A stretch of 64,000 nucleotides of DNA from Sphingobacteriales bacterium (GTDB lineage: Bacteria; Bacteroidota; Bacteroidia; Chitinophagales; Chitinophagaceae), in the NCBI GenBank assembly GCA_016200915.1, contig JACQDV010000007.1, forward strand, positions 15,273-79,272. Direction: 5' to 3'. A program made the translations under genes and the position numbers. The notes beneath the pieces were generated by a model. That model was not told the origin of the DNA, did not search any database, and saw only the letters and a list, made by a program, of their open reading frames with translations. Below, piece after piece: positions 26,298 to 36,195 of this stretch (position 1 is its first letter; each line of letters opens with the position of its first letter).

Positions 26298-26969
26298 GTG
26301 ATAGTTGAAATGTCAAATAAAACACATCAGGCACGTTTAGGTGAAGGTATATTCCTTACATCTGATGTAGCTGAAATTTTGCAATTGCCCTATTCGAAAG
26401 TTAGGAGATGGATGATTGAAATGTGGGATAGCCGTTTTGCAGATAAGGGAAGTTATTCCTTTGGGGATACCGGTAATAGAGCAGTAAACTTTTATACACT
26501 TATTGAATTTTTTACTTTTTATCAACTAAGATTAAAAGGGGTTAGTGCACAAAAAATTCAAAGAGCACATAGTACAATTTCAAGGGAACTTGGCACACCA
26601 TACCCTTTTGCTACAAATATCAGAACTGACGGTAAAGAAATTTGGTATGAGTATTTAGATGAACTAGTTAATGCTAATGGGAAAATGCAAATGGATTTTA
26701 AAACTATTTTAAATCCTTTTTTGCATAAAATTGAATTTGGGAAAAACAATCTAGCCGAATTATTCTATCCTTTAGAGAAGTCACGAAATATCGTAGTAGA
26801 CCCTAAACGCCAATTCGGCCAACCAACAGTCAATGGAAGAAATTTGCGAATTGAAACAATAAAGAAGATGTACGATGGCGGGGAAACAAAAAAGAATATT
26901 TGTTTGCTTTACGATTTAAAGCCATCTGAAGTGGACGATGCTTTGAGATATTATAAACGAGCTAGCTAA
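26298..26969 (+). CDS. DUF433-domain protein (antitoxin-like) with ~150-aa N-terminal extension
   Basis: C-terminal ..FGQPTVNGRNLRIETIKKMYDGGETKKNICLLYDLKPSEVDDALRYY matches DUF433 pattern. Confidence 0.6.
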   Translation: MIVEMSNKTHQARLGEGIFLTSDVAEILQLPYSKVRRWMIEMWDSRFADKGSYSFGDTGNRAVNFYTLIEFFTFYQLRLKGVSAQKIQRAHSTISRELGTPYPFATNIRTDGKEIWYEYLDELVNANGKMQMDFKTILNPFLHKIEFGKNNLAELFYPLEKSRNIVVDPKRQFGQPTVNGRNLRIETIKKMYDGGETKKNICLLYDLKPSEVDDALRYYKRAS

Positions 26970-27376
26970 TGTATTTCTTATTTGACGAAAATGTTCCATT
27001 CAAATTTGTACAAGGATTGGCCTTAATCGAAGAATCAAATCATAAAAGTCCAATTAAAGTAAAGCTTTCACACCCACGTTCTCTTGGCAATGAGGGCGCC
27101 TCAGATGAAGAACAAATACAAATAGCTGGACGAAATGATGGTGTTATCATTTCATTTGACAAAGACTTTAAACATATAAAAAGCTATTTTCCTCTTTATA
27201 AAAAACATAAGGTTGGTGTAGTTTTTTTGAAACTTTCTAAAGAGGAGTCTAATTATTGGGGAATAGTAAAGTTAGTTATTAATAAATGGGAAGAGTTAAA
27301 GATAGTTCTGAATGACCATGAGAAGCCATTTGCATATCAAGTAAGTAAGCATGGTATTCAAAGATTTGAATTCTAA
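26969..27376 (+). CDS. DUF5615 (PIN-like, Mut7-C-type) putative toxin
   Basis: MYFLFDENVP.., GASDEE, DKDF motifs typical of DUF5615; start codon overlaps the stop of the DUF433 gene. Confidence 0.6.
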   Translation: MYFLFDENVPFKFVQGLALIEESNHKSPIKVKLSHPRSLGNEGASDEEQIQIAGRNDGVIISFDKDFKHIKSYFPLYKKHKVGVVFLKLSKEESNYWGIVKLVINKWEELKIVLNDHEKPFAYQVSKHGIQRFEF

Positions 27377-27652
27377 ATTCAGGAAGAACTTATGATGAAA
27401 TGCCAACTATTGAACAATTAGAAGAAGTAGTGATGTAAAAATATTTTTTAAAAATTCTTCATCAAAAATTTGGCAGCATCAAAAAATTAGTTTCATCTTT
27501 GCACTCGCAAATAAATTAAATAACAACAAATGCTACGCACAGTGATACATATTGAAAGAGCGAATTGGTTTAGTCCCAAGGGTGACTATACTGTTTGCGG
27601 GGCAGCTGTTGCTGATGAATAAGTTTACTAAACGAATTCAATATAACACAGG

Positions 27653-27679
27653 CCCCGACAGTATCGTCGGGGTTTTTTG
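27653..27679 (+). terminator. Rho-independent terminator
   Basis: ccccgac-agtatc-gtcgggg followed by TTTTTTG. Confidence 0.7.
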
Positions 27680-27957
27680 TCTGAACCAGGATTGAATGGA
27701 TTTAGAGAATGGTAAAGAAAAAGTTGAAGAAGGTTTATGCAATTCTATATGTAATTGAATCTGTGTAAAAAGAAATAAATATATGCTGAAGCAATTCAAA
27801 CATAAACGATTTAGTGAAACTGTGATGACGTTACCACCAGTCATAGGCCAATGGTATGCCCTTGAGCAAAGAAGTATTGTGCCCTGTGGTAATGCCAGTG
27901 ATAACATAAACTGCCGACCGTATTGTGCCTGCACATAAAATAATATATGTAGTAATC

Positions 27958-27990
27958 AAACCCGGTCGCAGTGAGTGACCGGGTTTTTTT
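27958..27990 (+). terminator. Rho-independent terminator
   Basis: aaacccggtc-N9-gaccgggttt followed by T7. Confidence 0.75.
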
Positions 27991-33969: not shown

Positions 33970-33981
33970 ATTAAGTGGAAT

Positions 33982-34539
33982 TTACCACCCATCATCATTA
34001 AGCATGTTTTGTAATTCATCGTCATCAGGTTTAATATAGACGCCGGTAAGGATATGATAGGCTTCAATAAAATCATTGGCCAACGGGTTTTCACGGTGCA
34101 TGAGGAGTGCATTGAGTATATCAATACCTCCGGCACGGATGGAACCTTTTAGTTGCAGGTAGTTGCCATCATTAAAAATTTCAAACCAGTGATTGAACTT
34201 ATGAAAACGGGCTTTGTGACGATTGTCAATAGTGTCACATATGTAAATGACAGTATTTTCCTTTTCGTTTAAAAATGCTTTAACAATGTCCACAACAGTA
34301 ACGGCAATTTTTTTGTCTGGCGGAATTTTTTGCACACCTTCTGGTTTCTCTTTTAATTCCAGGTTAAAACCAAAAACGTTGGCGGCTAAAGCGGGGTAAT
34401 CAGAAAAGGCAGCTGAAAAATCAAAAAAATAACAATGGTAAACACAACCAATGCTGCTGGTGAAAGTATAAACTCTTTCGCTAATTTTTGATATCAGGTA
34501 ATGTTGCAAATTTGAAACCGGCTTTTTCAAGTTCTTCAA
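33982..34539 (-). CDS. Hypothetical protein
   Basis: 185-aa ORF; no recognisable motif; overlaps the next ORF by 59 bp, so start is uncertain. Confidence 0.4.
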   Translation of the reverse strand: MKNLKKPVSNLQHYLISKISERVYTFTSSIGCVYHCYFFDFSAAFSDYPALAANVFGFNLELKEKPEGVQKIPPDKKIAVTVVDIVKAFLNEKENTVIYICDTIDNRHKARFHKFNHWFEIFNDGNYLQLKGSIRAGGIDILNALLMHRENPLANDFIEAYHILTGVYIKPDDDELQNMLNDDGW

Positions 34540-34690
34540 AAGTTATACCGTGTTCACGGGCGGCAGTAAGATACTTGCTCATTTCAAGGGCAACGAGCAA
34601 TTTTTCTTTGCCCTTTGCCTCTTTGGCTTTTTGAGCAAAATATTCAGCAGTACGCTTTTCAAAACTGGTATTTTTTATGGGCTGTTTCAT
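34481..34690 (-). CDS. Hypothetical small basic protein
   Basis: 69-aa ORF, Lys/Glu-rich helical. Confidence 0.3.
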   Translation of the reverse strand: MKQPIKNTSFEKRTAEYFAQKAKEAKGKEKLLVALEMSKYLTAAREHGITFEELEKAGFKFATLPDIKN

Positions 34691-34743
34691 TAGCTATTGC
34701 AATTTACAAAAAATAAAAACCTTTGCCAACAGGCAATAATAGT

Positions 34744-36195
34744 ATGAGCAAATTAAAATTATCAGGAAAACAAATAAGAGCCATTGGTTACCCGGAAGGA
34801 CCGGTAGTGAGTGTGGCTATGCATGTAATGTGTACCAAATTCAAACATCATACAGAAACAGCAGCATTAGATATATTAAAACAAGTATTAAATGCCCCTG
34901 AAAATTATTTGAATGATGAAACACTCAAACAAATCGCAGAAAAATTGATGCCCGAGCCGGAGGCAGAAGGACAAACTATTTCCTTAAATCAAACCGGTAT
35001 TCAGTTTAATGTATTCGGACAGGAGCATATCGAAGAAGGCGCCATGCATCAAATGTACCAGGCAGCTAAATTACCCATCAGTGTGGCAGGAGCTTTAATG
35101 CCCGATGCACACAGTGGTTATGGTTTGCCTATTGGTGGTGTACTGGCAACAGAAAACTCTGTGATTCCTTATGGTGTGGGAGTAGATATTGGTTGTCGTA
35201 TGTGTTTGAGCATTTACGATATTGACCCAAAGGAACTCACACAAAGAGAAAACTTCTTTGCAAGAGAACTTGCTGAAGCTACTTTGTTTGGCAGCGGACA
35301 ACAATTTGACCAGGCATCTAATCATGAAGTAATGGAGAATGAATTATTCTTTCAGTTACCATTATTAAAAAACTTACATGGTCGTGCATGGAAACAATTG
35401 GGTTCTTCAGGAAGTGGTAATCACTTCGTGGAGTTTGGTGTAATTGAGATTGCAGAAAAAGATGCTGTACTAGGAGTAGAAGCAGGAAACTATGTTGGTT
35501 TGTTGAGTCACTCCGGTTCAAGAGCATTGGGTGCCAACATTGCCAATCACTATACAAAACTCGCCATCAGCAAAAGACGTTTGCCACAGGAAGCAAAAAA
35601 TTTGGCATGGTTAAGTTTGGATGAAGAAGAAGGAATTGAATACTGGAATGCAATGAACTTAGCTGGTGATTATGCTTCTGCCTGTCATCATGTGATACAT
35701 GAGAAAATTGCAAAGCAGTTGGGAAGAAAACCAATGACGATGGTGGAGAACCATCACAACTTTGCATGGAAGGAAACGTATGAAGGAAGAGAAGTAATTG
35801 TTCACCGTAAAGGAGCTACACCTGCAGGTAAAGATGTATTAGGAATTATTCCCGGTTCTATGACGGCACCCGGTTTTATTGTAAAAGGTAAAGGTGAAGT
35901 AGCTTCTGTTAATTCAGCTTCTCATGGAGCAGGAAGAAAGATGAGCAGAACAAGAGCAATGGAAAGTGTAACCGATAAACAATTCAAAGATGAATTGCAG
36001 AAACATGGAGTAAAGTTATTGGGCGGAGGAAAAGATGAATCACCATTTGCATATAAAGACATTGAAGTAGTAATGCAAAGTCAAAAAGCATTGGTGGAGG
36101 TAGTAGGTAAGTTTACTCCAAAGATTGTAAAGATGGACGGAGCACAACATAAGAGTTGGCGTAAGAAAAAAGAAGAAGAAGTGATGGGAGAGTAG
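34744..36195 (+). CDS. rtcB: RNA-splicing ligase RtcB (3'-phosphate/5'-hydroxyl nucleic acid ligase)
   Basis: RtcB metal-site motifs (DAHSGYG, GVGVDIGCRM, HSGSRALG, NHHNFA, HRKGAT). Start placed at MSKLKL (34744) because that sequence is duplicated at 33362; ORF track start is 34723. Confidence 0.9.
   Translation: MSKLKLSGKQIRAIGYPEGPVVSVAMHVMCTKFKHHTETAALDILKQVLNAPENYLNDETLKQIAEKLMPEPEAEGQTISLNQTGIQFNVFGQEHIEEGAMHQMYQAAKLPISVAGALMPDAHSGYGLPIGGVLATENSVIPYGVGVDIGCRMCLSIYDIDPKELTQRENFFARELAEATLFGSGQQFDQASNHEVMENELFFQLPLLKNLHGRAWKQLGSSGSGNHFVEFGVIEIAEKDAVLGVEAGNYVGLLSHSGSRALGANIANHYTKLAISKRRLPQEAKNLAWLSLDEEEGIEYWNAMNLAGDYASACHHVIHEKIAKQLGRKPMTMVENHHNFAWKETYEGREVIVHRKGATPAGKDVLGIIPGSMTAPGFIVKGKGEVASVNSASHGAGRKMSRTRAMESVTDKQFKDELQKHGVKLLGGGKDESPFAYKDIEVVMQSQKALVEVVGKFTPKIVKMDGAQHKSWRKKKEEEVMGE

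Follow-up and report, generated by a model that had tools for sequence, protein, structure and literature searches.

A conserved Chitinophagaceae locus combining a tRNA array, an SPFH protein, a double tRNA-like RNA and RtcB, with a probable role in RNA repair

Does the DNA that lies between a radical SAM gene and the end of rtcB in a Sphingobacteriales bacterium (contig JACQDV010000007.1) represent a collection of mobile genes or a locus with a function of its own? It belongs to a stretch of 64,000 nt that was analysed as a whole (the window; mean GC 0.372), and an earlier note had described it as an accessory island built around tRNA-like scars, the remnant of an old, decayed integration hotspot. 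The whole inventory of that note was recovered where it had been placed, by open reading frame (ORF) listing, by Pfam, PADLOC and NCBIfam scans for proteins, and by ARAGORN and Rfam for tRNAs and other RNAs. The end of the region had been set too early: the system reaches position 36195, the end of rtcB. The comparisons described here lead to another view of its nature. The segment from about 27.4 to 36.2 kb is probably a family-conserved RNA-repair and tRNA-backup locus, of the class that associates RtcB, an SPFH protein and a tRNA-like RNA, as judged from sequence comparison. Its core is a class already predicted in 2016, and the neighbourhood of rtcB and a tRNA array has a cyanobacterial precedent.

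Window proteins and ARAGORN tRNAs were mapped onto 83 related Chitinophagaceae loci carrying the SPFH gene. Synteny counts refer to the loci with enough flanking sequence: 62 for upstream features, 65 for the downstream RtcB gene and 55 for 8 kb upstream. The order of the backbone in the 83 loci is LigT-like phosphoesterase, PA0069 radical SAM protein, small ORFs with terminators, tRNA array, AAA ATPase and DUF458 protein, an RNA of about 250 nt, SPFH, a variable slot and RtcB. The protein genes of this backbone and its RNA are located in the window as follows (array, small ORFs and slot are given below):

24318-24962, plus strand: LigT-like 2H phosphoesterase of the 2',3'-cyclic phosphodiesterase superfamily, in the upstream flank of the backbone (Pfam 2_5_RNA_ligase2, E=1e-15)
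25112-26254, plus strand: PA0069-family radical SAM protein (NCBIfam NF033668, 464 bits, cut-off 360; 69-95% identical in relatives)
29167-30234, plus strand: AAA ATPase, classical clade (Pfam AAA, E=1.5e-10), with an N-terminal part of about 165 aa without recognised function
30275-30787, plus strand: DUF458/YkuK-type RNase H-like protein (Pfam PF04308, E=1.3e-32)
30875-31130, plus strand: conserved non-coding RNA of two tandem, circularly permuted tRNA-like modules (blastn, covariation, Rfam)
31452-32549, plus strand: SPFH/Band-7 protein, 'slipin family' (Pfam Band_7, E=8e-32; 72-92% identical across Chitinophagaceae)
34744-36195, plus strand: intact RtcB RNA ligase (Pfam RtcB, E=1.6e-81, profile positions 1-423 of 426; 483/490-aa ORF)

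A tRNA array precedes SPFH on the same strand in 57 of 62 loci. The DUF458 gene is present in 53 of these 62 and the AAA gene lies upstream of SPFH in 43, both being found in 39; the mutual order of the two genes can invert between loci. RtcB is encoded downstream of SPFH in 56 of 65 loci, at a distance ranging between 44 nt and 8.4 kb, with a median of 1.3 kb; the gap is at most 54 nt, with no nuclease gene in between, in 7 of the 56. Backbone proteins are 65-95% identical among dozens of species, and the SPFH protein had at least 482 matches in a collection holding one genome per species, a count that is a lower bound. SPFH, which had been taken for a lone protein, is part of this conserved backbone. 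The left flank is less constant, umuD (on the minus strand), LigT and the radical SAM gene being kept together in about 40% of the loci with 8 kb of upstream flank (21-22 of 55). Isolates of Lacibacter, Niastella and Flavisolibacter carry the locus; in Lacibacter sediminis it lies at around 381-402 kb of CP060007.1.

These counts bear directly on the hypothesis of an accessory island, in which the tRNA-like sequences would be integration scars at an old tRNA-associated hotspot and the genes a defence mosaic without common function. Several observations agree with it. In locus L091 (1231-8225; related loci are designated by L numbers) the outer flanks are identical (umuDC, LigT and radical SAM on one side, NusG and Poly_export on the other) and the whole array-to-RtcB block is missing, therefore the block as a whole can be lost or gained. 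A DUF433/PIN pair and a HEPN gene of the window are GC-poor and missing from the 83 loci, three units of the window array are damaged, the 5' end of rtcB is duplicated around a cassette of 1.38 kb, and the slot between SPFH and RtcB is of very variable length, as given above. However, a decayed hotspot does not account for an order kept in 57/62, 53/62 and 56/65 loci or for an SPFH protein found in at least 482 species, nor do scars account for a colinear array and for tRNAs and a non-coding RNA that covary as folded molecules (see below). The absence of an integrase, which had been recorded from the start, was confirmed, no Pfam integrase domain being detected in the ten main ORFs scanned; no direct repeats bound the whole block, the only repeats being those around the rtcB cassette. 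It is specifically next to RtcB that HEPN-like, DEDDh and DUF6169 genes are met again in other genomes. Two of the checks that the earlier note had proposed gave a divided answer. Synteny singles out the DUF433/PIN pair, the HEPN gene and L091 as variable, but the backbone is present in most relatives; base composition is low in the pair (0.342 and 0.314) and in the HEPN gene (0.293), but the rest is not deviant, backbone genes being at or above window GC, and the DUF458 gene, the RNA upstream of SPFH and SPFH itself above the window mean. Because they have the lowest GC of the region and are absent from the 83 loci, the pair and the HEPN gene are best seen as recent insertions. An accessory island is, in our opinion, quite unlikely.

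The RNA that precedes SPFH was detected by blastn in 65 loci, with 67-85% identity and at a fixed distance from SPFH (300-550 nt upstream). Module 1 (30922-30986) is YrlA-like, with a closing stem, a T-arm, an acceptor-like stem closed by a loop, and a D-arm. In module 2 (30994-31088), T-arm, closed acceptor stem and D-arm occur together with an anticodon-like arm, whose loop has 7 nt, and with a hairpin in the position of a long variable arm. In an alignment of 20 loci, the nine helices were 94.7% paired, compared with about 44% in controls in which the pairing partners were slid; compensatory changes affected 32 of 44 pairs, and none of 500 shuffles attained the observed values. This RNA is a maintained gene and not a scar, because its compensatory covariation is strong. 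The 'more tRNA fragments' of the earlier note do contain YrlA and tRNA matches, but these are parts of one covarying RNA made of two permuted tRNA-like modules. A sequence at its 5' end (30886-30894), CTGTATGCT, is invariant in the 20 loci and has no assigned pairing partner. Between this RNA and the SPFH start, a GC-rich hairpin (31401-31437) gave a weak whalefall-1 match in Rfam (22 bits, gathering threshold 37), which is probably either a chance match or a local regulatory hairpin.

Rfam recognised YrlA at 30923-30987, overlapping a partial tRNA match at 30963-31012. The YrlA score (RF02553), 41.1 bits for the window RNA and between 27.7 and 41.3 bits for relatives, stayed below the gathering threshold of 69 bits: only positions 23-87 align, and the Ro60-binding stem (YrlA positions 1-22 and 88-114) is unmatched in all SPFH-type loci. 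The tRNA-like module of YrlA itself is present: helices 1-4 reach 85-100% pairing, with compensatory changes. With an intact RtcB, a Band-7 gene linked on the same strand and an adjacent, covarying tRNA-like RNA, the locus has the three components of the Band-7/tRNA-like-RNA/RtcB class. No TROVE/Ro60 protein was found among the genes of the window region, L001, L003, L004 or L085. TROVE was found in L092 only (2240-9981), where Ro60 and three tandem full-length YrlA matches occupy the place of SPFH and its RNA; this locus continues with a homologue of the window HEPN-like gene, two RlaP genes, DUF6169 with a small ORF, and RtcB, and it also encodes a WYL-domain regulator. L092 is an instance of the displacement of Band-7 by Ro60 reported for RtcB systems.

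A class in which RtcB adjoins Band-7 and a putative tRNA-like RNA, and in which some Band-7 genes have YrlA as a neighbour, was predicted by Burroughs and Aravind (NAR 2016, as quoted in bioRxiv 10.1101/312249); the interchange of Band-7 and Ro60 in RtcB systems, and a proposed aid to RtcB from Band-7 or Ro60 with tRNA-like RNAs, are related in the same preprint. The present locus resembles this class, as it is quoted there, in the combination of RtcB, Band-7 and tRNA-like RNA, in the Ro60 swap (L092) and in the RlaP accessories (L085, L092). It differs from the class in that the RNA is a tandem of two permuted modules instead of one tRNA look-alike, and by the addition of a multi-tRNA array, the AAA/DUF458 pair and two small ORFs with terminators. 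In Salmonella Typhimurium the operon rsr-yrlBA-rtcBA, which encodes Ro60, Y RNAs, RtcB and RtcA and is controlled by RtcR (PMC7790460, PMC4201824), likewise joins RtcB to a ring or scaffold protein and to an RNA whose effector domain is a tRNA mimic (T-arm, closed acceptor stem, D-arm), with a link to tRNA cleavage; it is SOS-induced, and the present locus is neighboured by umuDC. In contrast with this operon, the window has no Ro60, RtcA or RtcR, SPFH is in the place of Ro60, and the RNA has no Ro-binding stem. The umu gene of the window is:

23737-24171, minus strand: umuD, divergent from the LigT-radical SAM start of the backbone (umuC is also found in relatives)

The presence of umuD/umuC beside the backbone is a hint of an SOS link resembling that of the Salmonella operon.

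The tRNA array of the window consists of eight units:

28242-28316, plus strand: damaged unit 1, orthologue of the array tRNA-Pro(UGG) (aligned to Pro(UGG) of 7 loci), with a CCCGCC-TCA-GGCGGG hairpin in place of the T-arm, recognised by neither ARAGORN nor Rfam
28324-28397, plus strand: tRNA-Ala(UGC) (ARAGORN; no Rfam match)
28401-28473, plus strand: tRNA-Asp(GUC) (ARAGORN; Rfam 48.8 bits)
28483-28556, plus strand: tRNA-Gln(UUG) (ARAGORN; Rfam 41.9 bits)
28652-28726, plus strand: tRNA-Lys(UUU) (ARAGORN; Rfam 64.7 bits)
28740-28803, plus strand: tRNA-like unit without anticodon arm (Rfam tRNA, 35 bits; 13 model positions reduced to 5 nt), where relatives have Arg(UCU)
28809-28881, plus strand: tRNA-Asn(GUU) (ARAGORN; Rfam 69.1 bits)
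28950-29043, plus strand: orthologue of tRNA-Phe(GAA) (aligned to Phe(GAA) of 8 loci), missed by ARAGORN and Rfam

Five tRNA genes were thus found by ARAGORN within 28324-28881, one more unit by Rfam and two more by alignment with orthologues; the five genes and the three damaged units are packed on one strand in 0.8 kb, with spacers of 3-95 nt. The T-loop of the Phe orthologue carries a 20-nt insert resembling a perfect palindrome (29007-29026, CCTGTCTGCCGACAGGCAGG), which is not found in any of the 8 aligned relatives. Across loci the array is colinear, in the order Pro, Ala, Glu, Asp, Gly, Gln, His, Arg(ACG), Leu, Ile(UAU), Met, Ile(GAU), Val, Lys, Arg(UCU), Asn, Tyr, Ser, Ser, Cys, Phe, Trp. 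Its content varies, the median being 8 genes and the maximum 17 (ARAGORN, 83 loci). Among 45 orthologues of tRNA-Lys(UUU), the cloverleaf was 96% paired (30-51% in slid controls), 16 of 21 pairs showed compensatory changes and the anticodon loop was invariant. Because their cloverleaf is kept through compensatory changes, array tRNAs are maintained genes and not scars. The earlier description of about 0.6 kb of AT-rich, degenerate tRNA-like genes therefore needs correction: tRNA genes are present and three are damaged, but the region is not AT-rich (GC 0.42, above the window mean). Individual tRNAs are nevertheless GC-poor for tRNAs, with a mean of 0.48 compared with 0.51-0.64 for the other tRNAs of these loci, and have low Rfam scores, an indirect sign that they may be supernumerary copies of housekeeping isoacceptors. 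Array copies of tRNA-Lys(UUU) mostly begin with a U1-A72 pair, and a tRNA-Ile with the UAU anticodon, rare in bacteria, is present in eighteen arrays (e.g. L003, L004, L017).

A tRNA array unit has been defined as at least 20 tRNA genes at a density of at least 2 per kb (PMC4758250); here the density reaches this value and the size does not, with at most 17 genes in the 83 loci and 5-8 in the window. In cyanobacteria, long tRNA arrays (L-arrays) neighbour rtcB and are co-regulated with it under translational stress, array tRNAs and RtcB have been proposed to jointly keep the tRNA pool under such stress, and L-arrays are reported to spread horizontally (PMC8421152). The arrays of Chitinophagaceae resemble them as tightly packed, same-strand, non-periodic tRNA genes linked to rtcB and to RNA-processing genes. 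They differ in being shorter (5-8 units in the window and up to 17 in relatives, versus up to 43), in being colinear, widespread and apparently vertically inherited in the family whereas L-arrays are sporadic (L091, which lacks the block, and L001, where its left flank is another, make this difference a tentative one), and in having no HNH homing endonuclease; furthermore, a leader-peptide attenuator is proposed here (see below), in place of the direct-repeat operator of Anabaena.

The two genes that follow the array were correctly described before as an AAA ATPase with an RNase H-like partner, both being recognised by Pfam. The closest solved relatives of the ATPase are AFG2, BCS1 and Rpt; no solved relative of the DUF458 protein was found by sequence. 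DUF458 homologues occur in 71 phage records. Relatives lie inside tRNA arrays in Stenotrophomonas phage DLP6 (L087, 4971-5453) and Leptolyngbya phage Lbo-JY46 (L089, 3962-4441), and near tRNAs in Pseudomonas phage Astolliot. In IMG/VR, 33 of 80 loci with a DUF458 relative have at least three tRNAs within 5 kb, the maximum being 27; none of the 22 closest viral relatives has any. The phage and viral loci concerned also include L086 and L115-L172. Large-phage tRNA arrays with RNA ligases (PMC7824862) resemble the present locus in the association of tRNA clusters with RNA repair enzymes and in the presence of DUF458 among tRNAs (L087, L089). They differ in that the present locus is chromosomal and devoid of phage genes, and in that the viral loci examined yielded neither SPFH nor its RNA. 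In related loci where the DUF458 gene precedes the AAA gene, an additional ORF of about 250 aa with no counterpart in the window lies between the array and the DUF458 gene (L003, 6953-7720; L004, 6897-7643). The idea that this 255-aa ORF of L003-type loci is a split N-terminal domain of the AAA protein was rejected, as it showed no similarity and no Pfam match.

These data raise the possibility that array, DUF458 and AAA genes form a domesticated, phage-derived L-array module, a mere neighbour of an independent SPFH-RtcB operon with no function in common. Such an origin would fit the DUF458 relatives inside phage tRNA arrays, the AAA relatives of jumbo Pseudomonas phages (35% identity over 81% of the length), the reported horizontal spread of L-arrays (PMC8421152), the composition of array tRNAs and their inclusion of the rare Ile(UAU), and locus L001, in which the array-to-RtcB block is present with a different left flank. 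On the other hand, the loci inspected contain no phage structural, integrase or homing-endonuclease genes, and the array is always immediately upstream of the SPFH unit on the same strand, with no terminator detected between array and SPFH in the window. Moreover, the 80 viral DUF458 loci encode no homologue of any other window protein, SPFH, RtcB and AAA included, and tRNAs were looked for and not found around the jumbo-phage AAA homologue. We consider a separate phage-derived module unlikely.

The two small peptide ORFs with strong terminators reported upstream of the array were confirmed (terminators at 27650-27675 and 27958-27986, or up to 27681 and 27993 as listed), and both ORFs are conserved in relatives:

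27469-27501, plus strand: promoter-like site of Bacteroidetes type (TTTG, 21-nt spacer, cATCTTTG) before sORF1, with TTTGG and CTTTGCA invariant in 24 aligned loci
27530-27622, plus strand: sORF1, 30 aa (MLRTVIHIERANWFSPKGDYTVCGAAVADE), kept at 30-32 aa with in-frame indels in 24 of 24 loci
27650-27681, plus strand: intrinsic terminator of sORF1, a 10-bp stem followed by a T run, whose inner stem covaries
27783-27938, plus strand: sORF2, 51 aa (MLKQFKHKRF...), with tblastn matches of 35-51% identity over 43-53 aa at the same position in 17 related loci
27958-27993, plus strand: intrinsic terminator of sORF2, a 12-bp stem followed by a T run

We infer the promoter from the known Bacteroidetes consensus. 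A scan for the exact consensus returned a number of matches below chance expectation, with no match in the region, and a sigma-70 promoter scan did no better than with shuffled sequences. Peptide sORF1 has no Pfam match. A near-invariant GCGGGGC in the 3' part of sORF1 can pair with the 5' arm of the terminator, and when the 3' arm is omitted this pairing is the minimum free energy fold in 24 of 24 loci. Consequently sORF1 and its terminator look like a possible ribosome-sensing attenuator.

In the window, the following elements and genes lie between SPFH and rtcB:

32554-32590, plus strand: intrinsic terminator directly after SPFH, with a 12-bp stem, a T run and 91-97% identity to 10 relatives
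32622-32690, plus strand: promoter-like element of about 70 nt with the invariant sequence GTTGCGTCGCAC, at the head of the slot in 10 loci whichever gene follows
32688-33350, plus strand: HEPN-fold protein with the invariant motif FRNNVLAHNFR (Rx4-6H), GC 0.293
33442-33969, plus strand: DEDDh 3'-5' exo(ribo)nuclease, Rv2179c-like (Pfam PF16473, 30.6 bits, threshold 27; PADLOC PDLC00753 exonuclease, E=3e-37)
33982-34509 (ORF to 34539), minus strand: DUF6169 protein, annotated at 175 aa, GNAT-like fold in a structure model
34481-34690, minus strand: p69, 69 aa, no family match, upstream of and overlapping DUF6169, divergent from rtcB

The element at 32622-32690 looks like a promoter or operator of the slot. 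Elsewhere the slot contains an ABC ATPase, DinB, RlaP nucleotidyltransferases or proteins with no known family. The slot seems to gather RNA-end enzymes and RNases, represented here by the HEPN candidate, DEDDh and the p69/DUF6169 pair. The AT-rich HEPN-like gene was correctly identified at first reading: it encodes a helical bundle matching solved HEPN domains, with RNNVLAH (R115...H121) at the end of helix 3 invariant in 19 homologues, although the Pfam match to HEPN_AbiU2 (22.3 bits) remains below the gathering threshold of 26.8. No homologue of this gene was found in the 83 related loci; rare relatives occur in similar neighbourhoods outside this set (L092 and L091). In L091, a 62%-identical HEPN-like gene directly follows the radical SAM gene. 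The HEPN-like gene of L085 was rejected as a homologue, as no similarity could be detected. The DEDDh catalytic residues (D7, E9, D92/D97, H149-x4-D154) are present in the translation, and copies 76-88% identical lie upstream of RtcB, mostly adjacent to it, in seven relatives.

Homologues of p69 are paired with DUF6169 in L029, L033, L044 and L084, and small ORFs occupy the same position in L085 and L092. The overlap of p69 with the GNAT-fold DUF6169 of about 175 aa resembles the layout of toxin-antitoxin (TA) pairs that acetylate aminoacyl-tRNA (AtaT, TacT type). The attributes of such pairs are a GNAT fold with a Q/RxxGxG/A acetyl-CoA loop and an antitoxin of the ribbon-helix-helix type; p69 and DUF6169 do not show this combination, and no acetyl-CoA motif is visible in DUF6169.

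The content of the slot could suggest that the locus is primarily an anti-phage abortive infection system, in which HEPN, PIN and DUF6169 proteins would damage tRNA while RtcB and the array reset the cell. The HEPN fold and Rx4-6H motif, the PIN-like toxin pair, the GNAT fold shared with tRNA-acetylating toxins and the match of DEDDh to the PADLOC 'effector exonuclease' model (same E value) are in keeping with it, as is the established biochemistry by which HEPN products are RtcB substrates. Nevertheless, the toxin-like genes are variable and dispensable while the repair backbone is conserved, and in many loci SPFH is directly followed by RtcB with no nuclease in between. The lack of a visible acetyl-CoA motif in DUF6169 is a further objection. 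PADLOC detected no system, 9 of 10 proteins having no match or a weak one only. Of the suggested defence and RNA-repair locus, RNA repair is therefore retained, whereas for defence there is a single-protein exonuclease match. A locus devoted primarily to abortive infection appears highly improbable. The tRNA/RNA theme that had been noted stands, with RtcB, SPFH and its tRNA-like RNA, the HEPN candidate, DEDDh and the LigT-like protein all present.

The cassette at rtcB, with its target duplication, exists as described, rtcB itself being intact. Relatives use the same start, ATG 34744 (the first codon of the open frame being TTG 34723), and the N-terminus MSKLKL.GK.. is conserved in 59 loci. 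The additional copy is:

33353-33414, plus strand: duplicated rtcB 5' end, 9 nt upstream and the first 53 nt of coding sequence, translated to MSKLKLTGKQIRAIGYPEA* with a stop at 33419-33421

The direct repeat of 62 nt (33353-33414 and 34735-34796) is 89% identical, with a 47-nt core at 98%, and the DEDDh, DUF6169 and p69 genes lie between the two copies. Similar duplications were found in L012 (57 nt, 98%) and L068 (47 nt, 94%), with a breakpoint likewise after about codon 18. In these two loci the stray rtcB copy abuts the DUF6169 stop codon, and the window, L012 and L068 have in common a conserved promoter-like stretch ahead of the rtcB start that is functional. The simplest reading is that DUF6169, p69, a promoter and an rtcB 5' end would have entered together at the start of rtcB, replacing its promoter. 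That DUF6169 could be a hidden recombinase responsible for the duplication was ruled out, the model having a GNAT-like fold. In L056, 23 nt of the rtcB start with upstream sequence are partially duplicated (10825-10847 and 10943-), therefore the rtcB 5' region appears duplication-prone.

Two further genes lie between the radical SAM gene and sORF1:

26298-26969, plus strand: DUF433 protein, antitoxin-like half of the pair (Pfam PF04255, 36.7 bits, threshold 23.6; GC 0.342)
26969-27376, plus strand: DUF5615/PIN_10 protein, toxin-like half (Pfam PF18480, 43.5 bits, threshold 23.8; PF18478, 29.3 bits; GC 0.314)

The stop codon of the first and the start codon of the second share base 26969. With both domains above threshold and overlapping genes, they have the features of a type II TA pair, the toxin activity being putative. 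Neither has a homologue in the 83 related loci, and the pair is taken to be a TA insertion unrelated to the repair locus.

How would an RNA-repair and tRNA-backup locus of this kind function? RtcB ligates 5'-OH ends to ends that bear a 2',3'-cyclic phosphate or a 3'-phosphate. Ends of these kinds, hence RtcB substrates, are produced by HEPN and other metal-independent RNases, and LigT-type enzymes act on cyclic phosphates. In the model that we favour, anticodon nucleases would cut tRNAs, leaving 2',3'-cyclic phosphate and 5'-OH ends that RtcB would reseal. SPFH with its tRNA-mimic RNA would act as a scaffold, cofactor or decoy, in the way suggested for Ro60 and Y RNA, and the array would deliver replacement or decoy tRNAs. 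The DUF458/AAA pair might work on the array transcript or on damaged tRNA. An sORF1 leader left untranslated by ribosomes would allow read-through of the terminator into the array, slot enzymes would trim or create RNA ends, and the p69/DUF6169 pair would have come with a new promoter and 5' end of rtcB.

Several points weigh against this model. The SPFH-associated class of tRNA-like RNAs was predicted and never validated experimentally, according to the preprint cited above (bioRxiv 10.1101/312249). A strong terminator parts SPFH from the slot and rtcB, and 9 of 65 loci have no RtcB within reach; therefore any co-regulation is putative. The window array is eroded (3 of 8 units damaged), and its tRNA-backup role may be weak here. 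The sORF1 antiterminator shows no covariation, RNAalifold recovering the terminator only, and it may merely reflect the sole G-run meeting the sole C-run of an AT-rich sequence. Finally, the roles proposed for AAA, DUF458, DUF6169, p69 and the small ORFs are suggested by neighbourhood alone. A more ambitious version of the model is correspondingly tentative, and we hold it to be more doubtful than probable: small ORFs, array, AAA/DUF458, double RNA, SPFH and RtcB would form one co-regulated system switched by sORF1 when translation falters, DUF458 would be a nuclease of the array transcript, as in large phages, and p69/DUF6169 a mobile module that targets the first 55 nt or so of rtcB and replaces its promoter.

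In the literature searched, we found no description of the family-wide combination of a colinear array, AAA/DUF458, a tandem permuted RNA and SPFH-RtcB, nor of the small ORF pair and its possible attenuator; the 2016 paper entered this comparison second-hand, and part of these features may be known. The same search gave no description of the link between DUF458 and phage tRNA arrays, nor of the recurrent duplication of the rtcB 5' end.

Bacteria of many kinds encode RtcB, and little has been learned of what it ligates in nature or with which cofactors; long supernumerary tRNA arrays likewise await an explanation. The present locus unites an array, SPFH with its RNA, and RtcB in a culturable family. 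It offers an RNA structure established by covariation and a candidate for a translation-sensing switch. Natural variants also exist, in which Ro60 replaces SPFH, slots have or lack nucleases, and arrays are eroded or full. Two ideas would thereby become testable in Chitinophagaceae: that spare tRNAs, a tRNA mimic and a ligase may cooperate after tRNA damage, and that DUF458 may be an enzyme of tRNA arrays shared with phages.

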